Shown here: positions 6,928 to 56,052 of the stretch, one piece after another
Numbering within the stretch: the first letter of the stretch is position 1
Layout of the letters: every line of letters begins with the position of its first letter
Assembly: GCF_036365525.1 (NCBI RefSeq)
Contig: NC_090373.1
Coordinates: forward strand, 97,683,461-97,747,460
Reading direction: 5' to 3'
DNA: 64,000 bases
Origin: Heterodontus francisci
Taxonomy: Eukaryota
Notes under the pieces: model-generated
The model's database searches: none
Told to the model about the DNA's origin: nothing
What the model saw: the letters and a program-made list of their open reading frames with translations, nothing else
Position numbers and translations under genes: made by a program

Positions 6928-7007
6928 GACCTCCAGAAAACAGTACTATGGCCTGCCAAAGATAATTTAGCAGAACTGATTTATACATTTTAGTCTGAAA
7001 CTGTGAG

Positions 7008-8048
7008 ATGACAAATTCAACATCTGGTGCGATTGTGGAAAACCTGCAATACTGCTTTGAATTTGTCAATGAATCTTGCCCCAAAACTGTTAGGTCAACA
7101 GCTATCCAAACAACACTGTACATTTTTATGATAACATCAATTCTGATCACAGTGTTTGGAAACTTAATGGTGATCATTTCAATCTCACACTTCAGGCAGC
7201 TCCAGAAGCCGACTAACTGCCTTGTACTTTCCTTGGCTGTTGCAGATTTTCTTGTGGGTTTCTTGGTCATGCCGTGTAGCATGGTGAGATCCATTGAAAC
7301 ATGTTGGTATTTTGGGAGTACATTTTGTAAAATTCACTCAAGCTTAGATATGATGATGAGTACATCATCTATTTTTCATTTGTGTTTTATTGCAATTGAC
7401 CGCTATTGTGCTGTGTGTGACCCTTTACTCTACTTGACAAAAATCACTCCTCTTGTAATTGCCATTTTTGTCACAGTTAGTTGAATGATTCCTGCACTAT
7501 TTGCATTTGGTGTAGTCTTCTCTGAGATTAATCTCATGGGCATTGAGGATATAATTGCTTCCAGTTCTTGTGTAGGTAGTTGTGTTCTTCTGTTCAATGA
7601 ACTGTGGGGAGTATTGGCTCCAACAATTACATTTTTCATTCCGGGTACCGTAATGCTGAGTATTTATATCAAAATATTTTTTGTGGCAAGAAAGCATGCC
7701 AGAGCAATTGAGAATACAAACAAGGAAACTAATTTTGCAGAAGAAAATAAAAACAGTATCTCAAGAAGTAAAGAGAGCAAGGCTGCAAAAACACTAGGGA
7801 TAGTGATGGGTATCTTTTTGACTTGCTGGATTCCTTTCTTTATAACCACTGTTATCAATCCAATTATACATTTTTCCACATTGCCAATTATATTTGATAC
7901 ATTTGTATGGTTTGGCTATTTTAATTCTGCTTTCAATCCAATGCTTTATGCTTTCTTTTACCCCTGGTTTCGTAAATCATTAAAACTTATCCTGACCAGA
8001 AAGATATTCGACTCCGATTCTTCAACAATTAATTTATTCACAGAATAG
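7008..8048 (+). pseudogene. TAAR: TAAR-family GPCR, 346-codon frame with one in-frame stop (TGA at 7482-7484, replacing W4.50)
   Basis: ORFs 7008-7484 and 7485-8048 are contiguous and in one frame. Motifs: [24 protein letters not shown]3.32 (D114), DRY, KAAKTLG, CWIP and the TAAR fingerprint NSAFNPMLYAFFYPWFRK. Paralogues have Trp at the stop position. Confidence 0.9.
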
Positions 8049-8978: not shown

Positions 8979-9340
8979 TTTTTTTTTTAATTTGTTTATG
9001 GGATGTGGGTGTCACTGACTAGGCCAGCATTTATTGCCCATCACTAATTGCCATTGAACTGAGTGACTTACTAGGCCATTGCTGTGGGTCTGGAATCATG
9101 TGCAGACCAGGTAAGGACAGCATATTTCCTTCCCTAAAGGACATTAGTGAACCAGATGGGTTTTTACAGCAATTGACAATGGTTTCATGGTCACCATTAG
9201 ACTAGCTTTTAATTGCAGATTTATTAATTGAATTCAAATTTCACCATCTGTCATGGTGGGATATGAACCCATGCCCCCAGAACATGAGCCTAGGCGCTGG
9301 ATTACTAGTCCAGTGAATTTACCACTACACCTCTGCTTCC
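8979..9340 (-). mobile_element. tRNA-headed SINE (probably MetaSINE-type) matching the head plus tail of the LINE at 46831-50095
   Basis: Reverse complement: A-box-like ggtgtagtgg, B-box-like gggttcatatccc, body ggttcactaatgtcctttagggaaggaaa, then actcagtt joined to caa.ggcaattag.gatgggcaataaatgctggcct...cccacatccca and poly-A. Confidence 0.85.
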
Positions 9341-9702: not shown

Positions 9703-10055
9703 GTTTAGTTTTTAGTTTAGAGATACAGCACTGAAACAGGCCCTTCGGCCCACCGAGTCTGTGCCGACCATCAACCACCCATTTATACTAATCCTACACT
9801 AATCCCATATTCCTACCACATCCCCACCTGTCCCTATATTACCCTACCACCTACCTATACTAGGGGCAATTTATAATGGCCAATTTACCTATCAACCTGC
9901 CAGTCTTTTGGCTTGTGGGAGGAAACCGGAGCACCCGGAGAAAACCCATGCAGACACAGGGAGAACTTGCAAACTCCACACAGGCAGTACCCAGAATTGA
10001 ACCCAGGTCGCTGGAGCTGTGAGGCTGCGGTGCTAACCACTGCACCACTGTGCCG
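9703..10055 (-). mobile_element. HE1-like V-SINE (tRNA head, CR1/HER1-type tail)
   Basis: Reverse complement: cggcacagtggtgcagtggttagcac...ggttcaattc...gggtgctccggtttcctcccaca...gggccgaagggcctgtttcagtgctgtatctct with a short-repeat tail. Confidence 0.9.
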
Positions 10056-11399: not shown

Positions 11400-12915
11400 T
11401 CTGACACCATGTAGAATCAGTATGGGTGGAAATTAGGAATAGCAAGAGTCAAAACTTGCTGGTGGGAGTAGTTCATAGGCTCCCTAACTGAAGTTATACC
11501 ATTGGACAGAGCATTAAATGAGAAATTATTGGAGCTTGTAACAAAGGCAATGTAATAATTGTGGGGGACTTTAACTTTCATATAGACTGGGACAATCAAA
11601 TTGGCAAGGGTGGTCTAGAAGATGAGCTTGTAGGATGGGGCAGCACAGTGGTGCAGTGGTTAGCACTGCAGCCTCACAGCTCCAGCGACCCGGGTTCAAT
11701 TCTGGGTACTGCCTGCGCGGAGTTTGCAAGTTCTCCCTGTGACCGTGTAGGTTTTCGCCGGGTGCTCCGGTTTCCTCCCACAGCCAAAGACTTGCAGGTT
11801 GATAGGTAAATTGGCCATTGTAAATTGCCCCTTGTGTAGGTAGGTGGTAGGAGAATTGAGGGAAGGTGAGGATGTGGTATGAATATGGGATTAATGTAGG
11901 ATTAGTATAAATGGGTGGTTGATGGTCAGCACAGACTCGGTGGGCCGAAGGGCCTGTTTCAGTGCTGTATCTCTAAATAAATAAATAGATGCTTTTGTGA
12001 CAGTTTCCTGGAGCAATACATTGTGAAACTGAATAGGGATAACGCTATTTTAGATCTAGTATTGCAAAATGAGGCAGGATTAATTAGTAATGTCCTAGTG
12101 AAATATCTGCTGGGAAATAGTAATCATAATACCATTGAATTCCATGTTAAGTTTGAAAGTGGCATACTCTAATCACAGACAAGAATCTTAAACTTAAACA
12201 ACACCAATTACATAGGTAAGAGGAGAGAATTGGCTACGGTTGAATAGGGTAAATAGACTAAAAGGTATGGCGGTTAATAAGCAGTGGGAAACATCTAAAG
12301 AAACAATTCAAATTGTTCAACAACTATATATTTCATTGAAAAACAAAAAAATCAGCAAGAAAGACCTATCCATGGCCCACTAAGGAAGTTAAGGATAGTA
12401 TTAGATTGAAGAAGAGGCTTATAATGCTGCAAAGAACAGTAGCACGTCTGAAGATTGGGAGTGTTTCAGAAACCAACAAAGGGTGACCAAAAACTTAATA
12501 AAAAGGGAAAAAATAGAATATGAGAGTAAACTAGCCAGAAATATAAAAACAGATTGTAAGAGCTTTTATAAGTATATAAAAATAGATAGCTAAAGTAAAC
12601 ACTGGTCACTTAGAAGCAGAGATAGGAGAAATTATCATGGGGAATGAAAAAATGGCAGAGGCATTGAGCAAATACTTTGTGACTGTTTTCACAGTAGAAG
12701 ACAAATTTGTATATCAGAAATAGAGGGTAACCTAGGGGCTAAAAAGAGTGAGAAATTAAAGCAACTAATATCGCAGAGAAAAAGTATTGGAGAAACATAA
12801 GGGACTAAAATCCGACAAATCCCCTGGACCGGATGGCCTACATCCTAGGGTTTTAAAAGAGATTGCTACAGATAGTGCATGCTCTGGCTCTGATTTTCCA
12901 AAATTCCTTAGATTT
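11400..12915 (+). mobile_element. CR1 LINE ORF2 internal fragment (APE to RT start), interrupted by an HE1-like SINE
   Basis: WVEI...VGVVHRLP...GDFNFHIDW endonuclease motifs, and KSPGPDGLHPRVLKE near 12810-12860. Confidence 0.85.
11637..11986 (+). mobile_element. HE1-like V-SINE, full length
   Basis: gggcagcacagtggtgcagtggttagcactg (A box), gggttcaattc (B box), V-domain gtgctccggtttcctcccac, tail gggccgaagggcctgtttcagtgctgtatctct(aaat)n. Confidence 0.92.
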
Positions 12916-15199: not shown

Positions 15200-15758
15200 A
15201 CTATCGCTGCCCCTGGTCCTTCCCGGGAGAGCAGAGGGGTTCAGACGAGCTCTGAGATGGAGGAGCGCGCCAGATCTGGGGTTCTCCCCTCAAGGTGATT
15301 CCAATGTGGATGCCCGCCCCTCTGCTGGTGATTCAAGCTCCAGCAGCCACGATGTCTTCGGAGAGTTCTGTGATGACGCAGGACTCCCTCAGCCAGCCGA
15401 GACCCTCCAGGTCTTGTGCACGCAGAGGATGACTGCCGAAGTTATCCACAGCCAAAGGGCAATCAGATCAGCAGCCTTCCTCCAGTCAGGCTGATAGCGC
15501 AGAGGTTGCACTAAGAAGGGGCACCTGCAAGCATTTAAAGAAAACACAGTAACACAAAAGGGAGTGCATGGGTGTCAAAGCATTGGAAATACGTTTGTTA
15601 CTAAATGTCCTTTTTTCTGTCTAAATGATGTGCGCCAGCATTTACCATTAATGTCGCATCCCTTTTAATCATTGGCCATTCAGGAATGCTAGTGTATGTA
15701 ATAGCATCATTGCCATGCCACCATTACTCATATGTGTCTCCACAGATGCAGTGACATG

Positions 15759-16100
15759 TTTAGAGATACAGCACTGAAACAGGCCCTTCGGCCCACCGAG
15801 TCTGTGCCGACCATCAACCACCCATTTATACTAATCCTACACTAATTCCATATTCCTACCACATCCCCACCTGTCCCTATATTTCCCTAACATCTACCTA
15901 TACTAGGGGCAATTTATAATGGCCAATTTACCTATCAACCTGCAAGTCTTTGGCATGTGGGAGGAAACCGGAGCATCCGGAGGAAACCCACGCAGACACA
16001 GGCAGAAGTTGCAAACTCCACACAGGCAGTACCCAGAATTGAACCCGGGTCGCTGGAGCTGTGAGGCTGCGGTGCTAACCACTGCGCCACTGTGCTGCCC
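15759..16100 (-). mobile_element. HE1-like V-SINE, full length
   Basis: Highly similar to 9703-10055 and to the reverse complement of 11637-11986. Confidence 0.92.
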
Positions 16101-16490
16101 AATGTACAATGGCTCAGTCTGCTGCTGCCTCTAATGGTTTACACAGGGATGCTGCAGATGTCGACTGCTACACAGCAGGTGAGCGAGGGTAATGTGTGGC
16201 TTGCAGGGCTCATGTTGGTTCAATGGAGCAGACAGCCTTTGTCTGATAAGCCACTGCTGTACATCCCTAGCTCCTACAAGCGGAACCTGGATGCCATCTG
16301 CCCTCCCATGCATCGTTTCTGTTGTAAGTCCTCAGCATTCTCATAGTCCAAGGAGGAATCCTGCTGACGTCTCTCCTCATCATGCCAGGCCTGTCCCCTA
16401 TTGGGTGTGTAGTTGTGCAGAGCACAGTGAGCAGCAAAGCAAGGAGCTGCCCTTTGCGCCTCGTAGTACAGGGTTGTGGTCTTCTCTACT

Positions 16491-18078: not shown

Positions 18079-18768
18079 TCTCTTCTCTCTTTGGCCTCGT
18101 CTCGAGAGACAATGGGTAAGTGCCTAGAGGTGGTCAGTGGTTTGTGGAGCAGCGCCTGGAGTGGCTATAAAGGTCAATTCTAGAGAGACAGACTCTTCCA
18201 CAGGTGCTGCAGATAAAATTGGTTGTTGGGGCTGTTACACAGTTGGCTCTTTCCTTGCACTTCTGTCTTTTTTCCTGTCAACTGCTAAGTCTGTGACTCG
18301 CCACTCTTTAGCCCTGCCTTTATGGCTGTCCACCAGCTCTGGCGATCACCAACAACTGACTTCCATGTCCTGTGGTCAATGTCACAAAACTTCATGTCGC
18401 GTTTGCAGACGTTTTTAAAGCGGAGGTCTGGATGGCCAGTGGGTCTGATACCAGTGACGAGCTCGCTGTACAATGCGTCCTTGGGGATCCTGCCATCTTC
18501 CATGCGGCTCACATGGCTAAGACATCTCAAGCGCCGCTGGCTCAGTCAAGTGCACATGCTGGGGATGTCGGCCACCTCGAGGACTTCTGTGTTGGAGATA
18601 CGGTCCTGCCACCTGATGCCAAGGATTCTCCGGAGGCAGCGAAGGTGGAATGAATTGAAATGTTGCTCTTGGCTGACGTACATTGTCCAGGCCTCACTGC
18701 CATAGAGCAAGGTACTGAGGACACAGGCTTGAAACACTCGGACTTTTGTGTTCCGTGTCAGTGCGCCA
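18079..18768 (-). mobile_element. RTE-clade LINE 3' fragment
   Basis: ACVLSTLLYGSEAW...CLRRILGIRWQDRISNTEVL and HVSRMEDGRIPKDALYSEL. Homologous to 40563-41214. Confidence 0.9.
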
Positions 18769-19678
18769 TTTTAATATTAATTACAATTTTGGGAAATTTG
18801 GTGATAGTGATTTCAATTTCACATTTCAGACAACTTCAGACACCAACCAAATGATCTTGTTCTTTCCTTAGTTACTGCTGATTTTGTGCTGGGATTCATT
18901 ATACTACCTTAAAGCATGATCAAATTTTTTGAAACCTGTTCGAATTTTGGAGATACAGTTTGCAAACTCCACTCGAGTTCAGATTTAACACTGACCACAG
19001 CACAAGTTTTAGTTTATACTTTATTGCCATAACTGTTACTATGCTGTGTGTGTGATCCTTTACTCTACCAAAATCACTCTGCCTGTAATTGGTATGTTTT
19101 TTACATTTACTTGGGTGTTTTCCATATTTTTTGGGTTTAGTCTTGTTTATTCAGATCACACTATAGCTGGAATGGAGAATTACATAGCTGGTACTTGATG
19201 TCAAGGCAGCAGCGTGCTCATATTTAATAAGCTGTGGGGGCATCTGGATACAGTGATTGCATTTTTAATTCCTAGTTTTATCATTGTAGGTGCATATCTC
19301 AAGATATTTTTCATAGCAAGAGAACATTCCAAAGTAATTGGAAAGAAGATAAACAAGATTCACTCCACAGAAGAAACCAATACCACAATCTCATATAATA
19401 AAGAACACAGGGCAGCTAAAAAATTAGGTACAATAATAGTTGTCTTCATAATCTTCTGGATTCCATTTTATGTAAACAGTGTTCTTGACGCATACATTAA
19501 TTTCACTTCCCCAGCAGTTTTATACGATTTTTTTGGGTGATTTGGTTATTTGAATTCCACATTTAACCCAATGTTTTATAGTTTCTTTCACCCTTGGTTT
19601 CAGAAAGCACTAAAATATATCCTGTCTTTTAAAATATTTCAGCCTGAGTCTTGCATGATTCATTTGTTCCTGAAATAA
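18769..19678 (+). pseudogene. TAAR: TAAR pseudogene, N-terminus lost at the RTE junction, multiple stops and frameshifts
   Basis: [25 protein letters not shown], stop/frameshift at ~18852, TAA at ~18910, damaged DRY, NKLWGHLDTVIAFLIP, HRAAKKLG, FWIPFY, TGA at W7.40 (19538-19540), [21 protein letters not shown]. Confidence 0.9.
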
Positions 19679-20855: not shown

Positions 20856-23800
20856 CTACCCATTTTGTATCGAGCCAAAGGAGTTTCAGATCAATGCAAA
20901 AATGGAAGTTGGAGGAAGTTGTACTTCAGGTTTTAGCAAGCAGTGAAACCATGAGCAGGAAGCAGAGAGCGGGAAACAGCGAGAGCAGAGCCGAGCATAA
21001 AGAGACCGGGAAAGAGAGCGAGAGTTTGAAAACAAAGTGAATAGTGACATCACAGGAAAGCTGCAAGGTGATTGGTTGGTGAGTAACTGCTGTTAGGGAA
21101 TAACTCTAAATAGCTGGGTTAGTAACTAAAGTAAAGAGAAAGGTAAGTCGACAGTTTTTTTATATAGTAAGTAGTGTTTATTAGGGAATTGAGGTTCCTG
21201 GTGTAAATAATCTCTAATTTTTGAGTAATTTAAGGGAGTAAATTAAGGGTAAGTCATGGCAGGGCAGCTCAGCAGCGTGGTGTGCTCCTCCTGTGCAATG
21301 TGGGAAGTCAGGGACACTTTCAGTGTCCAAGGCGAACACGTGTGCAGGAAGTGTCTCCAGCTGCAGCTACTCGAAATCCGCATTTTGGATCTGGAGCGGC
21401 GGCTGGTGACGCTGTGGAGCATCCACGAGGCTAATATCATCGTGGATAGCATGTACAGGGAGGTGGTCACATCGCAAGTAAAGACTGCTCAGGCAGAAAG
21501 TGAATGGGTGACCACCAAGCAGAGTAGAAGAACTAGGCAGGTAGTGCAGGGGGCCCTGGGCCCATTTCCCACTCTAACAGATTTTCCACTTTGGATACTG
21601 TTGAGGGAGATAGCTTCTCAGGGAAATGCAGCAAGAGCCAAGTCTATGGCACAACAAGTGGTTCAGCTGCACAGGAGGGGAGGAAAAAGAGTGGGCGAGC
21701 TATAGTGATAGGGGATTCTATTGTAAGGAGTACAGATAGGCGTTTCTGTGGCCACAAACGTGACTCCAGGATGGTAGGTTGCCTCCCTGATGTTAGGATA
21801 AAGGATGTCACGGAGCGGCTGCAGGACCTTCTGGAGGGGGAGGGTGAACAGTCAGAGGTCATGGTTCACATTGGTACCAATGACATACGACATAAGTTGA
21901 AAGCGGGATGAGGTCCTGCAACAAGAATTTAGGGAGCTAGGTAGCAGATTAAAATGCAGGACCTCAAAGGTTGCAAGTGAGTATAGAAATAGGAGGATAG
22001 AGCAGATGAATGCGTGGCTGAAGAGATGGTGCAGGAGGGAGAGCTTTAGTTTCCTGGTTCACTGGATCTGTTTCTGGCAAGGGTGGGACCTGTACAAGTC
22101 GGACAGGTTACACCTGAACCGGAACGGGACCAACATCCATGCAGGGAGGTTTGCTAGTGCTGTTGCGGGGGGTGCGGTGGGTGCGGCGTTTAAACTAATT
22201 TGGCAGAGGGATGGGATACAGAGTGGAGGTACAGTAGAGGATGATGCACAGCCAAATATAGAAGAAAAACTAAGTCTGTTTGGAAGGCAGAGCAAATATA
22301 GACCTGTTAAGGCACAAGTGAATAATGCAAGGCTGAACTGTATCGATTTTAATGCAAGGAGTCTTACAAGTAAGGCAAATGAATTGAAGGCGTTGATTAA
22401 CACATGGGAATATGATATTACTGCTATCACAGAGACATGGTTGACGAAAGGGCAGGACTGGCAGCTCCATATTTCAGGGTATTGAATCTTCAGGTGTGAC
22501 GGGGGGTGGGGGAGGGGGTGTAAAAGAGGAGATGGCATTGCACTATTGATCAAGGAGTCAATTACCGCAGTAAGAAGGAATGATATCTCAGAAGGTTCCT
22601 CTAATGAAGCCTTATGGGTAGAACTTAAAAACCAAAAGGGGGCAATCACTTTGTTGGGAGTGTACTACAGGCCTCCAACCAGTCAGGGAGAGATAGAGGA
22701 GCAGATATGTAGGCAAATCTCAGAGAGGTGTAAAAATAATAGGGTAATAATTGTAGGGGATTTCAACTTCCCCAATATCAACTGGAATAGTCTAAGTGCA
22801 AAAGGCTTAAAGGGGGCAGAATTCTGAAACAGCATCCAGGAGAGCTTTTTGAGCCAGCACGTAGAAAATCCTACAAGAGAAGGGGCGGTACTGGATCTAA
22901 TCTTAGGGAATGAAGCTGGACAAGTGGTAGAAGTGTCAGTGGGGGAGCATCTCAGGGATAGTGACCATAACTCGAAGATTTAATGTTGTTATTGAAAAGG
23001 ACAAAGATAGACCGGAAATAAAAGTACTGAATTGCGGGAAGGCCAATTTCAATATGATAAAACAGGATCTGGCCAAAGTGGACTGGGAGCAGATACTTGT
23101 AGGAAAGTCTAGGTCAGACTAGTGGGAGTCATTCAAAAAGGAAATAGTGAGAGTTCAGGGCCAACATGTTCCCATAAAGTTGAAGGGTAGGACCAACAAA
23201 TCCAGGGAACCCAGGATGCCAAGGGATATAGAGGATTGGACAAGGAAAAGAAAGGAGGCTTATGGCAGATTCAGAGTGCTGAAAACAGCAGAGGCACTAG
23301 AGGAGTATAGAAAGTGTAGGGTTGTACTTAAAAAGTAATTAGGAGAGCGAAAAGGGGTAATGAAAAAACACTGGCAGGCAAGATAAGGGAAAATCCCAAG
23401 GCGTTTTATAAGTATATTAAGGGCAAGAGGATAACCAGGGAAAGAGTAGGGCCCATTAGGGACCAAAGTGGCAATGTGTGTGTGGAGCCAGAGGCCATAG
23501 ATGAGGTTTTGAATGATTACTTTTCATCTGTGTTCACTATGGAGAAGGACGATGTAGGTGTAGAAATCAGGGAAAGGGGATTGTGATATACTCAAAAAGT
23601 TAGCATTGAAAGGGAGAAGGTATTAATGGTTTTAGCGGGCTTAAAAGTGATAAATCCCCAGACCCAGATGAGATGTATCCCAGGCTGCTATGTGAGCCAA
23701 GGGAGAAGATAGGAGGGACTCTGACACAAATTTTCAAATCCTCTCTGGCCACAGGAGAGGTACCAGAGGACTGGAGGACAGCGAATGTGGTACTATTATT

Positions 23801-24465
23801 CAAGAAGGGTATCAGGGATAAACCAGGTAATTACAGGCCAGTGAGACTAACATCAGTGGTAGGGAAACTATTGGAAAAGATTCTGAGGGACAGGATTAAT
23901 CTCCACTTGGAGAGGCAAGGATTAATCAGGAATAGTCAGCATGGCTTTGTCAAGGGAGATCATGTCTAACAAATTTGATTGAATTTTTCAAGGAGGTGAC
24001 AAGGTGTGTAGATGAGGGTAAAGCAGTTGATGTAATCAACATGGACTTCAGTAAGGCTTTTGATAAGGTCCCGCATGGGAGATTGGTCAAGAAGGTCAGA
24101 GCCCATGGGATCCAGGATAATTTGGCAAATTGGATACAAAATTGGCTTCGTGGCAGGAGGCAGAGGGTGATGTTCCAGGGTTGTTTTTGCAATTGGAAGC
24201 CTGTGACCAGTGGTGTACCGCAGGGATCGGTGCTGGGACCTTTGCTGTTTGTAGTGTACAATAATGATTGAGACGTGAATATAGGAGGTATGATCAGTAA
24301 TTTCGCAGATGACATGAAAATTGGTGGTGACGTAAATAGTGAGGAGGAAAGTCTTAGATTACAGGACGATATAGATGGGCTGGTAAGATGAACAGGGCAG
24401 TGGCAGATGGAATTTAATCCTGAGAAGTGTGAAGTGATGCATTTAGGAGGACTAACAAGGCAAGG

Positions 24466-24715
24466 CAACCACCTGCAAGTTCCCCTCCAAGTCACAGACC
24501 ATCCTGACTTGGAACTATATCGCCGTTACTTCAGTGTCGCTGGGTCAAAATCCTGGAACTCCCTTCCTAACAGCACTATGGGTATATCTACCCCAAATGG
24601 ACTGCAGCGCTTCAAGAAGGCAGCTCACCACCACCTTCTCAAGGGCAACTAGGGATGGGCAATAAATGCTGGCCTGGCCAGTGATGCCCACATCCCATGA
24701 ATGAATTAAAAAAAA
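24466..24715 (+). mobile_element. 3' fragment of the SINE-headed LINE family (46831-50095), inserted into CR1
   Basis: Near-identical to 49846-50095 (accacctgcaagttcccctccaagtcac...ccaccaccttctcaagggcaa...cccacatcccatgaatgaatt plus poly-A). It includes ORF sequence absent from the SINE. Confidence 0.9.
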
Positions 24716-25304
24716 GGATGGTTGGACCCTAGGGAGTACAGAATGTCAGGGGGACCTTGGTGTACTTGTCCATAGATCACTGAAGGCAGCAGCACAGGTA
24801 GATAAGGTGGTTAGGAAGGCATATGGGATACTTGCCTTTATTAACCGAGGCATAGAATAGAAGAGCAGGGAGGTTATGATGGAACTGTATAAATGCTAAT
24901 TAGGCCACAGCTGGAGTACTGTATACAGTTCTGGTCACCACACTATAGGAAGGATGCGATTGCACTGGAGAGGTGCAGAGGAGATTCACCTGGATGTTGC
25001 CTGGGCTGGAGCATTTCAGCTCTGAAGAGAGACTGGATAGGCTAGAGTTGTTTTCCTTAGAGCAGAGAAGGCTGTGGGGGGACTTGATTGAGGTATACAA
25101 AATTATGAGGGGCATAGATAGGGTAAATTGAAAGAACATTTTTCACTTAGCAGAGGGGTCAATAACAAGGGGGCATAGATTTAAGGTAAGGGGCAGGAGA
25201 TTTAGAGGGGATTTGAAGAAAACTTTTTTTCACCCAGAGGGTGGTTGGAATCTGGAATACACTGTCTGAAGGGCTGGTGGAGGCAGGAACCCTCACGACC
25301 TTTA

Positions 25305-36088: not shown

Positions 36089-39000
36089 GGGCTGGATTTT
36101 CGGGTTCTGTCGGCAGACAGAGGTCCAAAATACTAGCCATGTTCACAGGGCTGGGGGAGGGCAGGCCCATGATCCTGCCAGATCGCTGATTAAGGCCAAT
36201 TAAGCTGGTTAGGGAGCTCATTAATGGGGGATGTTGTGATTTTCGTGGGGGCACGCGGGCTGCAAACACTGTCTGGGGCAGACCAGTTGAAGGGTGGCAG
36301 GTACACAGTGGGGAGCCAGTCATGGCTGCCCCAGGGAATTACCTGGGCCCCATACAAGGGTGAATGGCATAGAGGGGGACTCGGCCAATGACAAACAAGT
36401 GCCTTTGGGACAGTGCAGGTGGCAGGGAGAGTGGGCAGTAAGCACTTGGGCAGTGCAGGGTGTCATCACTCTCCTGGCAAGGCACGGGCATAAGAGCAGG
36501 GGGCAAGGCTACCAAGGACAATTGGGTGACCACTTGACCACAAGGAAGGCAGCAGATGGCAGCGGGGGCACAATTCTTAGATTTTGGGCCCAGTTGTGAT
36601 GAGGAGCAACACTCTCACCAGGAAGGATGGAGCCCCTGGCATCAGGAGGGCAAAGGAGAGGAATGAGGGACAGGAAGGACATGGAGGCCATACCCTCAGC
36701 ATAGGGTCTACTGGCAAAGATGAAGCTACCCAGAGATGACTGAGATCCAGTGCTGCAGGAGACCATGATTCTCCAGGCACAGAGCTCTGTTATCTCGTCT
36801 CCGAAGACCTCACACCTCGCAGCACTGCTCACCAAGTCCTGACAGTAGCCATCAAAGTCACTGTGGCTTTGAACGTCTTCACTTCTCTCTCCTTCCAAAG
36901 ATCAGCTTTGGACCTTGGTGGCATCTCACAAACGGCAGCAACACCACTACATCTCACAGGTCACTGATGCCCGATTTGTCAGAACTGGACACTATATTCA
37001 GTTCATGAATGTGACCTCGCAGGCACAGCAGGCAGTGGGTTTCACCACCATCTCTAGACTCCCCCAGGTGCAGGGCGTCATTGATTGCACCCATGTGGCC
37101 ATCAAGGCACTGAGTGACGGCATAATCAGATTCATCAACAGAAAGGGCTTCGACTCCCTCAATGTTCAGCTGCTCTGCGACCATAACAACAGCTTCCTCC
37201 ATGTGTGCACTTGCTTTCCTGACAGCTGCTATGACTCCTCCATCCTCTGCCATTCCAGTCTGCCACTGTTCTTCACTCCAACCCCTAATGTCTGTGAATT
37301 GATCCCAGCTGAGAAGCCCAGACAGAGGCACTGAGGCGATACAACCAAAGCCATCTGCTCACTAGGACCACCATTGAGCAGGCAAACGGGCTTCTGAAGA
37401 TGCTGTTCCATTTCCTGGACCACTCTGGTGGCATCCTGCAATACACTCCTGCTAGGGTCTCACTCATCATGGTGGTTTGCTGTGCTGTCCATTATGTGGC
37501 CCTCCCAGAGAGGTGTGGACCTTGAGGACAGTGAGGCCCTGGAAAGAGATAGCTCATCAGAGAAAGAGGAGGAGCAGGAAGGAAGAGGAGGCAGAGGGAG
37601 AGGATGCAGGACACCAACGTTCTCTGCCTGCATAGGGAAGTGCCGGCACAGCGCAGGGCTCAAAGTTCGGTCAGGATGCCATGAATTTCACAGATCATCA
37701 GATTCAGGCACATTTCATCTGAGCTCCTCTAACCCAGGATGAAGGGAATCATCAGGAACTCACCCTGAGCAGCCTGGAACATGCCAACTGTTAATGCCAA
37801 TGAATGATGCACATCTGCCTGGAGGTTTTGCTATCTCTGTTGAGGAACCCTTGATCTCCTTCACCACCTCATACCTCAATAAAAGGAGTCTCATATATGT
37901 GCCTTCAAGTGTCATTATTTACACAGTGCTCAGAAAGGTAAACAGTACACAGTTACAGGAAGAAGACCCAATCAGGACTCCACTTGGCCACTCTTATGCA
38001 GTGGCCCTGGATGAGGTGGAGGCAGCCTGCTCATTTGTCTTGACTTGAGGCTGAGATGCACATGGTGGTCATCCTCATTGTGGAGATGCCAGTGGGGATC
38101 TCCAGAGGCTGCATCTGCAGCATTGCGGAGGCAATTTCCGTCACTGGGCCCGCCTGCACAGATGGTTCCTCTGTCAGAGGGGCCAAGGAGGACGAGGATG
38201 ATTAAGGTGCCTTGTGAGGGATGACACCCTCATCCTCCTCAGTAACATCCTCAGCCCTTGGATAACATTCTGTATGGCTGGAGGGGAGCACCAGCTGGGC
38301 AGCAACTGGTTTCCCCTCCAAAGGTCTCTACGCCACCAGTGCCACTGATGAGTCCAGGCTAAATAATGTGCCTCGCATCCTGTGTATGTCAGTGTGTAGT
38401 TCCTGCATCCACTCCTTAAAGTGTTGCCACATATGGTCTTCCATGAGGTTGGCCACTGTCTCCAGGAACGAGCTCATGCACTCATAGCCCCGAGCAATGG
38501 TGACACACTTGAGCTGGATGGACTCCTCCATTCTCTGCCCATGACCCCGCACTGCCTCAGAGAACTCCAATGTCTGGGAACATAGCTGCTGCTGCTGGGC
38601 TAGTTAGAACCTCCTTTCCAGTGACTCCTGAGGCCCTGCATCTGTGCCCAGCTGAGCAGGGCTGTGTCTGTCCTCCCTCCTCCGAGGGGAACAGCCCACA
38701 GCTGCCTCTGGCACCTCCTCCTTCACACCAGTGCTGTGCTCCTCACCTAGTGCCACCCTATGAGGACCCACTGAGATGAGTGTATCTGCACTGGTGGATG
38801 GTGTGCTTGTAAGGTGTGATGATGCTTCTTCAAATCCTTGCTGGTCATCTTGACTGGGTGATGGAGAGGGAGATGGCCTCCCTGGGAGGACGTCTGCACC
38901 TATGTGAAACACAAGAAGAGATCTTGAGAACCAGCCTTGGAGAGCAGAAGCTTCCCAATGCAACACAGTGTTTGTCATGCTGTTGGCTGGGGTGAAGTGC

Positions 39001-40562: not shown

Positions 40563-41214
40563 CAGGTCTGTGTCCTCAGTACCTTGCTCTATGGCAGCGA
40601 GGCCTGGACAAAGTATGTCAGCCAAGAGCGACGTCTCAATTCATTCCATCTTCACTGCCTCCGGAGAATCCTTGGCATCAGGTGGCAGGACCATATCTCC
40701 AACACAAAAAGTCCTCGAGGCAGCCAACATCCCCAGCTTATACACACTACTGAGTCAGCGGCGCTTGAGATGGCTTGGCCATGTGAGCCGCATGGAAGAT
40801 GGCAGGATCCCCAAAGACACATTGTACAGCGAGCCCGCCACTGGTATCAGACCCACCGGCCGTCCATGTCTCCGCTTTAAAGACGTCTGCAAACGCAACA
40901 CGAAATCCTGTGACATTGATCACAAGTCATGGGAGTCAGTTGCCAGCGATCGCCAGAGCTGGCAGGCAGCCATAAAGGGCGGCGAGTCGAAGAGACTTCG
41001 CAGTTGGCAGGAAAAAAGACAGAAGCGCAAGGGGAGAGCCAACTGTGTAACAGCCCCGACAAACAATTTGTTCTGCAGCATCTGTGGAAGAGTCTGTCAC
41101 TCTAATATTGGCCTTTATAGCCACTCCAGACGCTGCTCCACAATCCACTGACCACCTCCAGGCGCTTACCCATTGTCTCTCGAGACAAGGAGGCCAAAGA
41201 AGAAGAAGAAGAAG
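40563..41214 (+). mobile_element. RTE-clade LINE 3' fragment, preceded by a short CR1 piece at ~40425-40552
   Basis: LLYGSEAW, LRWLGHVSRMEDGRIPK, C-terminal CSICGRVCHSNIGLYSH, and a (GAA)n tail at 41198-41214. Confidence 0.9.
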
Positions 41215-41970
41215 ATATCAAGGCATGGCTAATAATAACTGGTCTCAACTTTAGAATATGCCCGTGCAGTGATTTAGAATTCATAGACTTAAACAAACAA
41301 ATCATTTGAATGCAGCTCCAACCTAACAGCAGATTAACCTATAGTGTAAAATGGAAGATATTTGGTTGGCCACCTGATTGATTCTGTTGAGTTCAATGGA
41401 AATGAAAATCGGAACATGGCTGTTTTACACTTGCACCAAATTCTGTCTTCCATTTTGGTGCTTTAGAGATCCAAAATAACATTTGCATACAATGCAAATG
41501 ATAGACCATTTTATTAGTTCAGGAAGCAATTTTTGTGATGTTTTGAAATTGTGCTGTGTATGATTATTTACTTGGGTTAGTGATTGTGTTAAAATAGAGC
41601 ACAAATAAATTTACACGAGCATTACAAATAATGTATTGCTGCAATAAATGTAATCGTCTGCATTGTGTCTTTTCTTTAACAGGAACATATTTAATTCTGG
41701 GATTTTATTTTTCAGAAGCTAGGGTTTTCAATCCTAAAATCTTTCTCATCACTAAAATCCTTTCCATGCCTTTTAGCCTGCTTTTGAAAGTGCACTTCCA
41801 TTGTTTCAAATATGTCACTAATAATAGGTTGTTTTTACAGAAATCACAGATTAACCACAAATGAAGAAAATCACAGTTCTTGTTAAAGATCACTCCAATC
41901 AATACCTCTGAAATAAGAGCTTTGTCATCTCACCGTGATCTAAGGATTTGGACTATCGATGTGAAAAAGA

Positions 41971-43008
41971 ATGAATTTAACACATCTTGAGAAGTTAGAA
42001 GATGTGCAATACTGTTTTGAATTTGTCAATACCTCCTGTCCCAGAGTCACCAGGCCAACAGCAATCAATGCAGCACTGTACATTTTTATCACCATTTCAA
42101 TACTAATTACTATATTTGGAAATCTGGTGGTGATCATTTCTGTTTTACACTTCAAGCAACTACAGACACCCACCAACTGTCTTATCTTATCTTTAGCTGT
42201 TGTGGATTTTCTGGTGGGCTTTATTGTGTTGCCTTATAGTATGGTTAGGTCTGTAGAAACGTGCTGGTATTTTGGAGAAGTATTTTGTAAAATTCACTCA
42301 ATTATAGATATTGTATTGACCATAGTTTCGATTTATACTTTATGTTTTATTGCCATTGATCGTTACTATGCTATGTGTGACCCTTTGCTCCACTCTATAA
42401 AGATCACTCTGCCTATAATAATTGTGACTATGATATTAATCTGGTTGTTTGCTCTCTTTTATGGACTTAGTGTGTTTTTATTAGATTTCAGTAAAAAGTC
42501 AGTAGATGATTATATGGCTACTAGGTCTTGTGATGGCAGTTGTATTGCATATGATAAGTTTGAGGGGCACGTGGATGCACTGATTGTATTTTTTATTCCC
42601 ATTTTTATCATTTTAGGTGTATATGTCAAGATATTTTTTGTGATGAGGTGCAAACATGGTGGAAGAATTGGAAACATGTCACATAATAGCCACTGTACAG
42701 AAGAAAACAATATTAAAATCTTGCATAAAAAAGAGCAAATAGTTGTTAAAAACCAAGACATATTAATAGGAATTTTTACACTCTCCTGGCTGCCTTTCTA
42801 TGTAAATAGCATTCTGAACCCATATTTTAATTTTTTAATTCCACCAGCTATAGACAGTGTATTTGCGTGGTTTGGATTCTTTAATTCTACTTTAAACCCA
42901 TTGCTTTATGCTTTCTTGTATCCGTGGTTTCGCAAAACACTAAAACTTATACTTTCTGGTCAGATATTTAATTCAGATTCTTCTACAATTAATTTTCTTT
43001 CAGAGTAA
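41971..43008 (+). CDS. TAAR: Trace amine-associated receptor, 345 aa, single-exon CDS, divergent TM6
   Basis: [24 protein letters not shown]3.32 (D113), DRY, D5.42 (D202), SWLP and the fingerprint NSTLNPLLYAFLYPWFRK. AATAAA at 43039-43044. Confidence 0.93.
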   Translation: MNLTHLEKLEDVQYCFEFVNTSCPRVTRPTAINAALYIFITISILITIFGNLVVIISVLHFKQLQTPTNCLILSLAVVDFLVGFIVLPYSMVRSVETCWYFGEVFCKIHSIIDIVLTIVSIYTLCFIAIDRYYAMCDPLLHSIKITLPIIIVTMILIWLFALFYGLSVFLLDFSKKSVDDYMATRSCDGSCIAYDKFEGHVDALIVFFIPIFIILGVYVKIFFVMRCKHGGRIGNMSHNSHCTEENNIKILHKKEQIVVKNQDILIGIFTLSWLPFYVNSILNPYFNFLIPPAIDSVFAWFGFFNSTLNPLLYAFLYPWFRKTLKLILSGQIFNSDSSTINFLSE

Positions 43009-44340: not shown

Positions 44341-44628
44341 CATTGCTTTATGCTTTCTTGTATCTGTGGTTTCGCAAAAAACTAAAACTTATACTTTCTG
44401 GTCAGATATTTAACTCAGATTCTTCTACGATGAATTTTTTTCAGAGTAAACACAGATATCATGGAGCTATACGAAATGAAATAAATAAAATTTATATATT
44501 CCTCACATTCATTGTGTTGGAAAGTATTTTTCAACCAACCCCTTTCAACCAGCCATGGTTCATTGGTTGCACTTTTGCCTCTGAGTCAAAAACTTGTGGG
44601 CCCCACTCCAGTCAGAACACAAGGTCTA
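44341..44628 (+). pseudogene. Duplicated 3' end of the TAAR at 41971 (helix 8, C-tail, polyA signal and DeuSINE head)
   Basis: Aligns to 42900-43173 (cattgctttatgctttcttgtatc.gtggtttcgcaaaa...cagagtaaacacagatatcatg...ccagtcagaacacaa) with scattered substitutions and indels. Confidence 0.9.
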
Positions 44629-44699: not shown

Positions 44700-46805
44700 A
44701 AAAAACCAACAGGCTCTCCTGCATCATCTGTCTCCATAGCAAGTGGTACATGTGGGATGTCCCAGATAACATGAAGGGGAAAGGTAGGGCAAATAAATCC
44801 AGAGCTCCAGAGACAGACATTAAGATGAAGAAACAAAAATGTGCTTATGACAGATGTCAGGTGGATAATGCATCTGAGATCCAGGCTGAATATAGAAGGT
44901 TCAGAAGGGAAGTGAAAAGCAAATAAGAGAAGCAAAGAGAGAGTATGAAAAGAGACAGACAGCTAACATCAAAGGGAATCCAGAAGTCTTCTACAGGTAT
45001 ATTCAATGTAAAAGCATAGTAAAAGGAGGAGTGGGGCTTTGGTATTAAATTAATACTTTGCATCTATCTTTGCCAAGGAAGATGCTGTGCAGATCATGGT
45101 GAAAAAGGAGATTATTCAGACACTTTAAAATTGATATGGAGGAATCATTGGATAGGCTAGCTGTACTTAAAGTTGATAAGGCACCAGGACTGGATGAGAC
45201 GCATCCAATAATGCTGAGGGAAGTGAGAATGGACATTTTTTTTTATTCGTTCATGGGATGTGGGTGTCACTGGCTCAGCCAGCATTTATTGCCCATCCCT
45301 AATTGCCCACTGAAGGCATTTCAGAGTCAAGCAAATTGCAGATGCACTGACCATAATTTTCCAGTCTTCTTTAGATTCACGGGTCATGCCAGAGGTCTGG
45401 AGAATTTCAAATGTTACACCCTTGTTCAAAAAAGGGTGTAAAGATAAGCCCAGCAACTACAGGCCAGTCAGTTTAACTTCAGTGGAAGCTTCTAGAAAAG
45501 ATAATTCAGGACAAAATTAATAGTCACTTGGGCACTTGCGAGTTAATTAGAGAAAGCCAGCACGGAGCTGTGAAGGGCAAATCATGTTTAACTAACTTGT
45601 TGGGATTTTTTTGAAGAGGTAACAGAATGGGTTGATTAGGGTAATGCTGTTGATGTGGTATACAACTTCCAAAAAGCATTTCATAAAGTGCCAAACAACA
45701 GACTTGTGAGCAAAGTTATAGCTCATGGAATAAAAGGAGTAGTAGAAACAGGGATACGAAATTAGCTGAGTGACAGGAAACAGAAAGTAGTGCTAAATGG
45801 ATGTTTTTCAGACTGGAGGAATGTTTGTAATGGAGTTCCCCAAGGGTCGGTGTAGGACCTTTGCTGTTCCTGATTTATATTAATGACATCGACCTTGGTG
45901 TACAGGGCATGATATGAAACTTGGAAACATTGTGAACTGTGAGGAGCACAGCGTAGAACATCAAATCACATAGTTGGTAGAATGGGCAGACAAGTGGCAG
46001 GTGAAATGTATTGCAGAGAAGTGTGAAGTGATACATTTTTGTAGGAATAGTGCAAAGAGACAATATAAAATAAAAGATACAATTCTAAAAGGGGTGCAGG
46101 AGCAGAGGGACATGGGTGAATATGTACATAAGTCATTGAAGGTGGCAGGACAGGTTGAGAGAGCAGTTATAAGAACATACAGCATCCTAGGCATCACTAA
46201 TAGAGGCATAGAGTACAAAAGCAAGGAAGTTATATTAAACTTGTATAGGATACTGGTTTGGCGTCAACTGGACAATTGTGTCCAGTTCTGGGTGCCTCAC
46301 TTTAGGAAAGACATCAAGGCATTGGAAAGAGTGCAGAAAAGATTCATGAGAATGGTTCCAGGGAAGAAAAACTTCTGTTAGATAGATTGGAGAAGTTGGG
46401 GGACTGTTCTCCTTGGAGAAGAGGAGGTTGAGAGGAGATTTGATAAAGGTATTCAAAATCATCAAAATTATGAGGGTCTGGACAGAGTAGATAGGGAAAA
46501 ACTGTTCCCACTGGTGGAAGGATCGAGAAGAAGAGGGCACAGACATAAGGTCATTGGCAAAAGAAGCAATAGCGACATAAGGAAAAACTTTTTCACGCAG
46601 CGAATGGTTGGGATCTGGAATACACTGCCAGAGAGTGTGGTGGAGGCAGGTTCCATCGAGGCATTCAAGATGGAATTGAATTGTTATCTGAAAATGAGGA
46701 ATATTCTGGGCTATAAGGAGAAGACGGGGGAGTGGCACTAGGTAAATTGCTCTTTCAGAGAGCCAGTGCAGACATGATGGGCTGTAACAATTCTGTGATT
46801 CTGTG
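44700..46805 (+). mobile_element. Decayed CR1 LINE ORF2 and 3' end
   Basis: LKVDKAPGLDETHP, NYRPVSL, WADKWQVK, VQFWVPHFRKDI, FFTQRMVGIWN, and a (ttctgtga)n tail at ~46791-46806. Confidence 0.85.
45236..45330 (-). mobile_element. Short tail fragment of the SINE/LINE family at 8979 and 46831
   Basis: poly-T followed by attcgttcatgggatgtgggtgtcactggctcagccagcatttattgcccatccctaattgccc. Confidence 0.8.
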
Positions 46806-46840
46806 AAAGGGTGTAAGCAATGCTTTTCAAGGGTAGGCAG

Positions 46841-46923
46841 TGGCGTAGTGGTATTATCACTGGACTAGTAACCCAGAGACCCAGGGTATTTCTCTGGGGA
46901 CATGGGTTCATGGGTTTGAATCC
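46841..46923 (+). promoter_or_regulatory. tRNA-type internal Pol III promoter (A and B boxes)
   Basis: A box TGGCGTAGTGG at 46841-46851. B box GGTTTGAATCC at 46913-46923 (one change from GGTTCGAATCC), preceded by a small catgggtt duplication. Confidence 0.75.
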
Positions 46924-47135
46924 CACCACAGCAGAAGGTGGAATTTGAATGAATGAATAAATCTGGAATTAAAAGCTAGTCTAGTGATGGCCATGAAACC
47001 ATTGTCGATTGTTGTAAAAACCTATCTGGTTCACTAATGTCCTTTAGGGAAGGAAATCTGCTGTCCTTACCTGGTCTGGCCTACATGTGACTCCAGACCC
47101 ACAGAAATGTGCTTAACTCTTACATGCCCTCTGAA

Positions 47136-50033
47136 ATGGCCTTGCAAGCCACTCAGTTGTACCTAACCGCTACAAAGTCAATAAAAAGGAATGAAACCGG
47201 ACGGACCACCCAGCATCAACCTAGGCACCGGAAACGACAACGGCAAACCCAGCCCTGTCGACCCTGCAAAGTCCTCCTTACTAACATCTGGGGGCTGGTG
47301 CCAAAGTTGGGAGAGCTGTCCCACAGACTAGTCAAGCAAAAGCCTGACATAGTTATACTAACGGAATCATACCTTCCAGACAATGTCCCAGACACTGCCA
47401 TCACCATCCCCGGGTATGTCCTGTCTCACCGGCAGGATAGACCCACCAGAGGTGGTGGCACAGTGGTATACAGTAGGGAGGGAGTTGCCCTGGGAGTCCT
47501 CAACATCGACTCCGGACCCCATGAAGTCTCATGGCATCAGGTCAAACATGGGCAAGGTAACCTCCTGCTGATTACCACCTACCGCCCTCCCTCAGCTGAT
47601 GACTCAGTACTCCTCCATGTTGAACACCACTTCGAGGAAGTACTGAGGGTGGCAAGGGCACAAAATGTACTCTGGGTGGGGGACTTCAATGTCCATCACC
47701 AAGAGTGGCTCGGTAGCACCACTACTGACTGAGCTGGCCGAGTCCTAAAGGACATAACTACTAGACTGGGTCTGCGGCAGGTGGTGGGGGAACCAACACG
47801 AGGGAAAAACATACTTGACCTCGTCCTCACCAATCTGCCTGCCGCAGATACTTCAGTCCATGACAGTATTGGTAGGAGTGACCACCGCACAGTCCTTGTG
47901 GAGACGAAGTCCCGCCTTCACATTGAAGATACCGTCCATCGTGTTGTGTGGCACGATCACCGTGCTAAATGGGATAGATTTCGAACAGATCTAGCAATGC
48001 AAAACTGGGCATCCATGAGGCGCTGTGGACCATCAGCAGCAGCAGAATTGTACTCAACCACAATCTGTAACCTCATGGCCCGGCATATCCCCCACTCTAC
48101 CATTACCGTCAAGCCAGGAGACCAACCCTGGTTCAATGAAGAGTGCAGGAGGGCATGCCAGGAGCAGCACAGGCATACCTCAAAATGAGTTGTCAACCTG
48201 GTGAAGCTACAACCCAAGACTACTTGCATGCCAAACTGCGTAAGCAGCATGCGATAGACAGAGATAAGCGATCCCATAACCAACGGATCAGATCTAAGCT
48301 CTGCAGTCCTGCCACATCCAGCCGTGAATGGTGGTGGACAATTAAACAAGTAACTGGAGGAGGTGGCTCCACAAATATCCCCATCCTCAATGATGGGGAG
48401 CCCAGAACATCATTGCGAAAGATAAGGCTGAAGCATTTGCAACAATCTTCAGCCAGAAGTCCCCAGCATCACAGATACCAGACTTCAGCCAATTCGATTC
48501 ACTCCGCATGATATCAAGAAACGACTGAAGGCACTGGATACTGCAAAGGCTATGGGCCCTGACAATATTCCGGCAATAGTACTGAAGACCTGTGCTCCAG
48601 AACTTGCCTCGCCCCAAGCCAAGCTGTTCCAGTACAGCTACAACACTGACATCTACCCTGCAATGTGGAAAATTGTCCAGGTATGTCCTGTACACAAAAA
48701 GCAGGACAAGTCCAACCCGGCCAATTACTGCCCCATCAGCCGACTCTCAATCATCAGTAAAGTGATGGAAGGTGTCATCAACAGTGCCATCAAGCGGCAC
48801 TTGCTTAGCAATAACCTGCTCAGTGACGCTCAGTTTGGGTTCCGCCAGGGCCACTCAGCTCCTGACCTCATTACAGCCTTGGTTCAAACATGGACAAAAG
48901 AGCTGAACTCAAGAGGTGAGGTGAGAGTGACTACCCTTGACATCAAGGCAACATTTGACTGAGTATGGCATCAAGGAGCCCTAGCAAAACTGAAGTCAAT
49001 GGGAATCAGGGGGAAAACCCTCCGCTGGTTGGAGTCATACCTAGTGCAAAGGAAGATGGTTGTGGTTGTTGGAGGTCAATCATCTGAGCTCCAGGACATC
49101 ACTGCAGGAGTTCCTCAAGGTAGTGTCCTAGGCCCAACCATCTTCAGCTTCCTCATCAATGACCTTCCTTCAATCATAAGGTCAGAAGTGGGGATGTGCG
49201 CTGATGATTGCACAATGATCAGTACCATTCATGACTGCTCAGATACTGAAGAAGTCCGTGTAGAAATGCAGCAAGACCTGGACAACATCCAGGCTTGGAC
49301 TGATAAGTGGCAAGTAACATTCGCGCCACACAAGTGCCAGGCAATGACCATCTCCAACAAGGGAGAATCTAACCATCTCCCCTTGACATTCAACGGCATT
49401 ACCATCGCTGAATCCCCCACTATCAACATCCTAGGGGCTACCATTGACCAGAAACTGAACTGGAGTAGCCATATAAATACCATGGCTACAAGAGCAGGTC
49501 AGAGGCTGGGAATCCTGAGGCGAGTAACTCACCTCCTGACTCCCCAAAGCCTGTCCACCATCTAAAAGGCACAAGTCAGGAGTGTGATGGAATACTCTCG
49601 ACTTGCCTGGATGGGTGCAGCTCCAACAACACTCAAGAAGCTCAACACCATCCAGGACAAAGCAGCCCACATGATTGGCACCCCATCTATAAACATTCAC
49701 TCCCTTCATCACCGACGCACAGTGGCAGCAGTGTGTCCCATCTACAGGATGCACTGCAGCAATGCACCAAGGATCCTTCAACAGCTCCTTCCAAACCCAC
49801 GACCTCTACCAACTAGAAGGACAAGGGCAGCAAATACATGGGAACGCCACCACCTGCATGTTCCCCTCCAAGTCACACACCATCCTGACTTGGAACTATA
49901 TCGCCGTTCCTTCACTGTCACTGGGTCAAAATCCTGGAACTCCCTTGCTAACAGCAATGTGGGTGTACCTACCCCAAATGGACTGCAGCGGTTCAAGAAG
50001 ACAGCTCACCACCACCTTCTCAAGGGCAATTAG
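47136..50033 (+). pseudogene. Single APE-RT ORF of the SINE-headed LINE, broken by stops and frameshifts
   Basis: ATG in gaaATGg context inside the SINE-shared body, in frame with RHRKRQRQ and the APE domain. Stops at 47730, 48960 and 49563. Frameshifts or deletion at ~48170, ~48400-48460 and ~49845. Confidence 0.8.
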
Positions 50034-55757: not shown

Positions 55758-56052
55758 TCATAGAGTCATAGAGAGATACCCCTTTGGCCCACTGAGTCTG
55801 TGCCGACCAACAACCACCCATTTATACTAATCCTACATTAATCCCATATTCCCCACCATTCTCCTACCACCTACCTACACTAGGGGCAATTTACAGTGGT
55901 CAATTTACCTATCAACCTGCAAGTCTTTGGCTGTGGGAGGAAACCAGAGCACCCAGCGGAAGCCCACGCAGTTACAGGGAGAAATTACAAACTCCGCACA
56001 GGCAGCACCCAGAACCGAACCTGGGTCGCTGGAGCTGTGAGGCTGCGGTGCT
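55758..56052 (-). mobile_element. HE1-like V-SINE, 5' end clipped
   Basis: Homologous to 15759-16100, with a (tatgactc)-type tail at 55758-55772. Confidence 0.85.

Follow-up and report, generated by a model that had tools for sequence, protein, structure and literature searches.

A shark LINE and a SINE that share both ends: a candidate tRNA-headed coding retroelement and its possible internal-deletion derivative

LINEs and SINEs are taught as two separate classes of retroelement, the former coding and transcribed by Pol II and the latter non-coding and transcribed by Pol III. In the window analyzed here, by which we mean the whole 64,000-nt stretch of Heterodontus francisci DNA, a SINE at 8984 to 9336 (minus strand) and a LINE beginning at 46837 (plus strand) share a tRNA-like head as well as a tail. 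The locus therefore raises the question of which element gave rise to the other, and of whether a coding LINE could be transcribed from a tRNA-derived promoter.

The SINE comprises a tRNA-like head, a linker, a body, a LINE-type tail, and an A-tail, with an A-run that continues to about 8978. Alignment of its minus strand with the LINE was co-linear: SINE 9336 to 9058 corresponds to LINE 46837 to 47157, and SINE 9057 to 8984 to LINE 50020 to 50095. The LINE stretch omitted from the SINE measures 2,862 nt, in agreement with the sequence-only reading of the SINE as the LINE head plus tail without about 2.86 kb of ORF. No SINE-specific bases lie between the two LINE-matching parts, and a single base (T) at the junction is assignable to either side. 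Identity between the elements is 88% for the 5′ part (244/277) and 85% for the tail (57/67, LINE 50020 to 50086), and by segment it is 72/86 in the tRNA-like part, 78/88 in the linker, and 94/103 in the body; self-BLAST of the window returned the head match with E = 1.8e-73 and the tail match with E = 1.8e-16. On the minus strand, the SINE head (9250 to 9336) has decayed A and B boxes, the linker and body (9058 to 9249) equal LINE 46933 to 47157, and the tail (8991 to 9057) equals LINE 50020 to 50086, that is, the last ORF codons and the 3′ UTR. Private to the SINE copy are a 5-nt deletion and a 29-nt deletion (LINE ∼47104 to 47132), the latter being what had been described as a gap of about 30 nt. 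The LINE copy has an 8-nt duplication near 46910, in the B-box region, that is absent from 732 of the sequencing reads described below. No target-site duplication of at least 6 nt was found at either the SINE or the LINE.

The LINE itself, all on the plus strand, consists of a tRNA-like head at 46837 to 46932 (A box from 46841 and B-box-like motif from 46913, by Rfam, A/B-box scan, and fold), although the LINE could begin as far upstream as 46831; a 225-nt 5′ leader at 46933 to 47157, common to the SINE by alignment and reads; a single ORF at 47124 to 50033 encoding an APE endonuclease and a reverse transcriptase (Pfam PF03372 and PF00078); and a 3′ end at 50020 to 50095, common to the SINE, with the stop codon (50031 to 50033), a hairpin, AATAAA (50042 to 50047), and an A-tail. 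A 5′-truncated copy of the same LINE at 24455 to 24714 (plus strand) is 93% identical to 49836 to 50086; this 260-nt insertion splits a CR1-like LINE (22333 to 24454 and 24733 to 25290), and no target duplication was found there. Another tail copy, at 45236 to 45330 (minus strand), is preceded by a 10-nt exact match to the leader end, as read by eye; it probably represents a SINE-type copy that was truncated and has one more deletion.

To evaluate whether the junction is fixed over copies, four sequencing runs (raw reads of a capture library, X21, and contigs of X1, X16, and X7) were aligned on 46678 to 50277 at 80% identity. The X7 contigs come from another organism, and X16 is a run guessed to be RNA, whose contigs are informative on neither start, strand, nor level. 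In X21, 355,147 of 11,989,820 reads aligned to the stretch, with flank depth below one read. Among the 15 best-supported joints listed, X21 contributed 1,552 head-to-tail reads, 1,440 of which fall within 47155-47159 > 50020-50022: 854 at 47157 > 50020 (221 start places), 439 at 47159 > 50020 (200 start places), and 147 at four other positions within 47155 to 47158, i.e., within 2 nt. The other 112 joint reads lie at 47122 to 47142. The same joints are present in the contigs of X1, X16, and X7. We conclude that the SINE constitutes a family whose junction is fixed, in two principal forms 2 nt apart that may stem from more than one origin, and that the shared-end architecture is real and family-level rather than an artifact. 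At ∼350 nt the SINE is short, non-coding, and multicopy and has a LINE-shared tail, as expected of a tRNA-derived SINE (SINE2); it also has the makeup of a bipartite LINE derivative, in which the 5′ part and 3′ end of one LINE meet at a fixed junction and the ORF is removed. Separately, 1,161 X21 molecules end at a single place, 47284 on the plus strand, which is probably a library or capture artifact.

Read depth and gene models bear on how the shared body relates to the LINE. X21 depth before the junction (47038 to 47157) is about 10,260, roughly the sum of LINE and SINE, and past the junction it is 5,451 at 47164, close to the ORF depth of 5,354 at 47360 and 5,045 at 47633. None of the six largest loose ends listed for X21, the smallest of which has 1,411 reads, lies before ∼47160. 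An X16 contig (contig 9) covers 47092 to 47632 and differs at 77 places, indicating a separate LINE copy. In a eukaryotic protein set (eukprot), the leader peptide is joined to the endonuclease in gene models P0003 and P0030, and gene models P0004 and P0161 start at the ATG matching 47136, so that the leader-endonuclease link is found in four of seven protein matches (P0003, P0004, P0030, and P0161); P0003, P0004, and P0030 are labeled whale shark. Since thousands of reads, and whale-shark gene models as well, pass from the body into the ORF without interruption, the SINE body is the LINE 5′ leader, and the leader-ORF link is a family trait present in more than one species.

Farther upstream, X21 depth declines, measuring 7,073 at 47023 and 3,824 at 46974 and reaching about 2,900 over the tRNA part (46910 to 46950). 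The last value is below the depth of the LINE alone (about 5,400), and thus the reads do not demonstrate that most LINE copies carry the head; a full head-to-ORF copy was seen directly once, in the window LINE. Upstream of 47007 (46990 to 47010), contigs of three runs leave the reference with a related, divergent linker, which indicates at least one further head subfamily. Alternatively, the fall from about 10,260 could mean that the 46837 copy acquired its tRNA head as a chimera, whether a one-off or one of a minority, that the family LINE starts within the leader, and that the SINE is a classical head joined to bipartite LINE ends; short reads, being too short for the 310 nt between A box and junction, leave room for this account. 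However, no dominant start point or loose end was found in the leader among those listed for X21, the loose ends before 47007 represent a related variant of the same linker, and a one-off event cannot account for the deficit of T-runs along the ORF described below. Truncation at the 5′ end, the divergent linker variant, and the 80% identity cut-off all lower depth and can account for the fall in the head. We consider the chimera highly unlikely, and we infer that most full-length LINE copies carry the head and are transcribed by Pol III.

The LINE head gave an Rfam tRNA-clan match of 16.5 bits (E = 1.8), below the gathering score, and the SINE head gave one at 9333 to 9255 that, at 16.6 bits (E = 1.1), likewise falls short of the gathering score (29). 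Weak as they are, these are the sole tRNA-clan Rfam matches in their regions and lie where a head would be expected. When the whole window was scanned loosely for A/B boxes, only the LINE head and three V-SINE-like copies matched, and the decayed SINE head was missed. The LINE head folds with z = −2.6, and its anticodon-like loop has 7 nt and reads AGT (Thr). ARAGORN reported zero tRNAs in the window and zero in 54 of 80 related loci given to it; because it is blind to the window's own heads, it provides no test of a head in relatives. Rfam at the gathering score likewise found nothing in 16 of the best 80 loci, a threshold that the window's own heads fail too. An A/B-box pair was found in 0 of 48 related loci with at least 300 nt upstream (from the best 80 of 453 confirmed), so that, relative to these distant kin, the head is a gain in this LINE lineage.

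The shared body had been likened to the Meta domain, and it had been proposed on that basis that a conserved domain of a SINE superfamily may serve as a LINE 5′ leader. In MetaSINEs, a 66-bp Meta domain immediately follows the head (PMC4824008). By-eye comparison with two published members, BivaMeta-SINE1 and BivaMD-SINE1 (PMC4824008 supplement), showed unrelated sequence right after the B box. Searches of the window with two Meta motifs were at chance level, one giving 4 matches versus 6.7 expected, none of them in the SINE or LINE, and the other giving 0. The Meta-domain identity is thus not upheld, and with it falls the idea of a conserved SINE-superfamily domain as a LINE leader; that the body is a LINE leader holds independently, from the reads and gene models. 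The name MER131 does not occur in the available part of PMC7145552. MetaSINEs resemble the present elements in their tRNA-derived heads, which are nearest to tRNA-Thr, the loop here being likewise of Thr type, but differ in possessing the Meta domain and, in the available text, in listing no shark member (PMC4824008).

In this LINE copy the ORF is disrupted: it contains three stops, together with several frameshifts or small deletions. It is co-linear with single-ORF proteins of 940 to 985 aa that are about 36 to 42% identical, and the closest proteins to the element are 60 to 80% identical and include gene models labeled whale shark. Pfam identified the APE-RT arrangement, without an RNase H or restriction-like endonuclease match, and we take the motifs to be of the CR1/Jockey group. 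In an RT tree, two CR1-like pieces of the window formed their own clade (100/99) excluding the headed LINE, whose place among its relatives the tree does not resolve. Identification of the headed LINE as a HER1-like CR1, the window's other LINE, was rejected, as the RT tree separates the two and no DNA match exists between the families. Whale-shark repeats include a CR1-Zenon-like class (10.1101/443036), which may be the label that this LINE gets. DNA motif scans of viral contig, metagenome contig, and genome contig collections gave 0 matches; a protein pattern scan of the genome contigs gave 90 matches, 0 confirmed; among 1,151 candidates for longer close relatives, a protein search gave 1 weak match; a protein search with the leader peptide gave no match; and the ESM Atlas returned generic endonuclease clusters only.

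The surroundings of these elements look like cartilaginous-fish DNA, with receptor genes, many CR1-like LINE pieces, and whale-shark-labeled protein matches. A cluster of single-exon rhodopsin-family receptor genes (Pfam 7tm_1), presumably TAAR-like, lies on the plus strand at 6999 to 8048, 41965 to 43008, and 52233 to 53312, with fragments at 18766 to 19665 and 44341 to 44440; the first has an in-frame stop at 7482 to 7484, and those at 42 kb and 52 kb are open. A second SINE family, which we take to be an HE1-like V-SINE, is represented at 9711 to 10053, 11623 to 11981, 15758 to 16116, and 55780 to 56052 by copies 84 to 96% alike, three of them with intact A and B boxes. Three decayed DDE_Tnp_4 transposase fragments (36873 to 37555, 54237 to 54928, and 60622 to 61020) are presumably of PIF/Harbinger type. 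A 160-nt direct repeat (57088 to 57247 and 59017 to 59176, 91% alike, 1.9 kb apart) flanks a 162-aa ORF without a Pfam match and is possibly the remnant of an LTR element. Two copies of another LINE 3′ end, 87% alike and without a Pfam match, lie at 18081 to 18726 and 40568 to 41206 and are assumed here to be RTE-like.

Whether Pol III could transcribe the entire LINE depends on its terminators: Pol III terminates at four or more T, and certain variants containing T3 can stop it as well (PMC3141230). In the 3,252 nt of the LINE sense strand there are 0 TTTT, where base shuffling expects 4.6 (P = 0.008) and dinucleotide shuffling 1.8 (P = 0.16). The opposite strand has 15 such runs (15 A4+ runs on the sense strand), and six CR1-like pieces of the window have 34 in 7,820 nt. 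When the ORF's own codons were permuted with the amino acids kept, TTT runs numbered 3 versus 11.5 expected, with 0 of 2,000 permutations as low, and AAA, CCC, and GGG runs were as expected; by the same procedure TTTT stood at 0 versus 1.6, which is not significant (P = 0.15 to 0.17), and TTT over the whole element gave P = 0.09 against dinucleotide shuffles. TTT is the most depleted non-CpG trinucleotide in the LINE. Windows with four T in five positions, which are degenerate terminator-like, numbered 1 versus 8.7 expected (P = 0.002), and Phe makes up 1.6% of residues versus 2.2 to 5.3% in 19 full-length relatives, below all of them. The deficit is absent from the CR1-like and receptor ORFs of the window. 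It is also absent from relatives: among 77 related loci with an ORF of at least 900 nt (from the best 80 of 453 confirmed), all 77 contain TTTT (minimum 1.5/kb, median 6.5), and the lowest TTT ratio is 0.79 versus 0.26 in the headed LINE. Pyrimidine tracts are enriched and splice-donor motifs normal in the LINE, which argues against splice avoidance, and CpG decay in this copy would add T, so the deficit is if anything understated. These tests were run on one LINE copy, and it is in this copy that the sense strand lacks Pol III terminators throughout the ORF; the SINE, too, contains no TTTT, which is compatible with Pol III. The TTTT at 50087 might have served as a family terminator, but this reading was rejected because the reads leave the copy at that point with an A-run. 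The composition of this coding strand suggests long selection against T-runs, a pattern that would fit Pol III transcription of the LINE without proving the polymerase.

The same data could be explained if the LINE were an ordinary Pol II unit, its head being a relic or a Pol II promoter or boundary element, with Pol III used by the SINE only and the lack of T-runs arising from U-poor composition, RT slippage, or host RNA surveillance. T content is indeed only 0.20 and TT is low as well (75 versus 92 expected), the AATAAA motifs, one at 50042 and one where the A-tail begins, suit Pol II equally well, an uncapped LINE RNA would still need a route of translation, and LINEs are all described as Pol II transcripts in the available text of PMC10886601. 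Yet the deficit is specific to T-runs of the sense strand, exceeds what codon usage explains, and extends to Phe content; it is found neither in the 77 related ORFs nor in the neighboring CR1-like LINEs, and it includes degenerate four-in-five motifs of a kind that can stop Pol III (PMC3141230). We regard an ordinary Pol II unit as a somewhat unlikely explanation, if one to be taken seriously.

Pol III RNAs are uncapped, and a LINE RNA of this origin would have to be translated accordingly. The leader region contains 12 ATGs up to 47191, of which only those at 47124 and 47136 open into the endonuclease in this copy, and shuffled sequences fold as well as the leader body does (z = 0.2). Two codons after the ATG matching 47136, TAG is found in the SINE copy and in two X16 SINE contigs. 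In three LINE copies that codon specifies Leu (TTG, window), Gln (P0004), or Glu (P0161), each of which could differ from TAG by a single change; gene models tend to favor open frames. Judging from these few copies, the family may have a stop at this position and no AUG-started frame, which would imply reinitiation or non-AUG starts. We infer cap-independent or reinitiation-type translation of the LINE.

As to the origin of the SINE, the breakpoints lie at the edges of the ORF, one 22 nt past the ATG at 47136 and the other 14 nt short of where the stop codon ends. A SINE that had borrowed its tail should own its body, and a LINE capturing a SINE head would need its switch to fall precisely on the border between body and tail; the edge breakpoints therefore favor a one-step deletion. 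The sequence-only reading had offered both deletion from a Pol III LINE and capture of the SINE head by the LINE. Deletion from a headed LINE emerges as the best reading, given these breakpoints and the lack of a SINE-specific middle, and the direction from LINE to SINE is favored, not proved. In the proposed route, the LINE lineage would earlier have gained its head from a tRNA or an older SINE, and its RNA would have been made by Pol III, which would explain the avoidance of T-runs on the coding strand. Reverse transcription would have begun at the hairpin and A-tail of the 3′ end, almost the entire ORF (about 2.86 kb) would have been skipped, and synthesis would have resumed at the leader end. 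Because the LINE already had internal A/B-box promoter elements, the deletion product would at once have been a working SINE, amplified in trans by the LINE protein.

The reverse order, in which a headless LINE produced a bipartite derivative that gained a tRNA head (the Okada/Kojima route), after which the LINE took the head by template switching in the shared leader and spread, also predicts the absence of a SINE-specific middle. Addition of a head to a bipartite LINE is published for RTE and Vingi (PMC5786205), and the distant relatives without a head imply that the head was added at some point. This order nevertheless calls for two extra events and for a headless LINE with this leader, a form that was not seen; the ORF-wide T-run deficit, if due to Pol III, implies a long headed history; and the present LINE looks CR1/Jockey-like by its motifs, while ORF-absent bipartite LINEs are given, in the text available, only for RTE, Ingi, Vingi, and R2 (PMC5786205). 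A SINE-first origin appears distinctly unlikely to us. We think it somewhat probable, instead, that the window holds a decayed copy of a very abundant single-ORF LINE with a head derived from a tRNA and with a 225-nt leader, that the SINE is its internal-deletion derivative, and that Pol III most likely transcribes the LINE. The more inclusive proposal is tentative, and we hold it with slightly less than even confidence: a shark coding LINE family that Pol III would transcribe from an internal promoter of tRNA origin, with T-run terminators purged from its 2.9-kb ORF down to codon and Phe usage, whose uncapped RNA would be translated through the leader, possibly without an in-frame AUG, and from which a complete SINE would have been born by one internal deletion.

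Published systems share parts of this arrangement. In Bov-tA, AfroSINE, CoeSINE4, SINE2_Gav, and SINE2-1_EC, which are based on RTE or Vingi, the body likewise corresponds to the partner LINE's 5′ part and the tail to its 3′ end, with an internal deletion (Kojima 2018, PMC5786205). In those SINEs, however, it was the deleted LINE that received the head, which the LINE itself lacks, whereas here the LINE copy is headed (PMC5786205). In the available portions of PMC5786205 and PMC7245038, SINE bodies from LINE 5′ parts are confined to RTE and Vingi, and the LINE stays a Pol II unit in that model. RIME/Ingi, NARTc/L1Tc, the Vingi-1_EE derivatives, Bov-A, and R2 SIDEs also join 5′ and 3′ ends at a fixed junction with the ORF deleted, but their descriptions, which in the text available come from four clades only, present them as Pol II units lacking a small-RNA head (PMC5786205). 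RTE-1_DAn and elements related to it, of the RTE clade, are LINEs that hold tRNA-like sequence and are treated as a source of accidental hits (PMC5786205). The shark SINEs HE1 (V-SINE, HER1 tail), SacSINE1 (Deu), and CmiSINEs (CORE, L2 tail) similarly combine a tRNA-derived head with a LINE-derived tail, but their descriptions set them apart, since only the tail is common with a LINE and the bodies are V, Deu, or CORE (PMC3747384, PMC5499810). The TRIMp3 elements Cassandra, Helenus, and Ajax are retroelements with a Pol III promoter from a small-RNA gene, but they are short, non-coding LTR elements (PMC10886601). The literature covered, mostly listings and abstracts, contained no tRNA-headed LINE with a deletion-derived SINE, and the family may be catalogued elsewhere, as in Repbase, Dfam, or SINEBase. 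Motifs of the window were absent from the paper full texts searched and from the supplements of PMC5786205 and PMC7245038, in a search that pictures and wrapped lines would escape. The present LINE also differs from the RTE/Vingi-based systems in that, by its motifs, it appears to belong to neither clade, and in that its ORF avoids T-runs.

Relative to the known bipartite LINE derivatives, what sets this case apart is that the probable parent LINE carries the SINE head. Pol III is not known to drive coding LINEs; if the proposal is true, the LINE/SINE split would no longer hold for a coding LINE driven by a tRNA promoter, and the question would arise of how a 3.3-kb uncapped RNA is translated. 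It would also provide a one-step route for the birth of a SINE, and a case in which a SINE body that would otherwise be an orphan can be traced to a LINE leader, apparently beyond the RTE and Vingi clades for which such origins are reported. Because the family is abundant, shark repeat annotation is affected either way.
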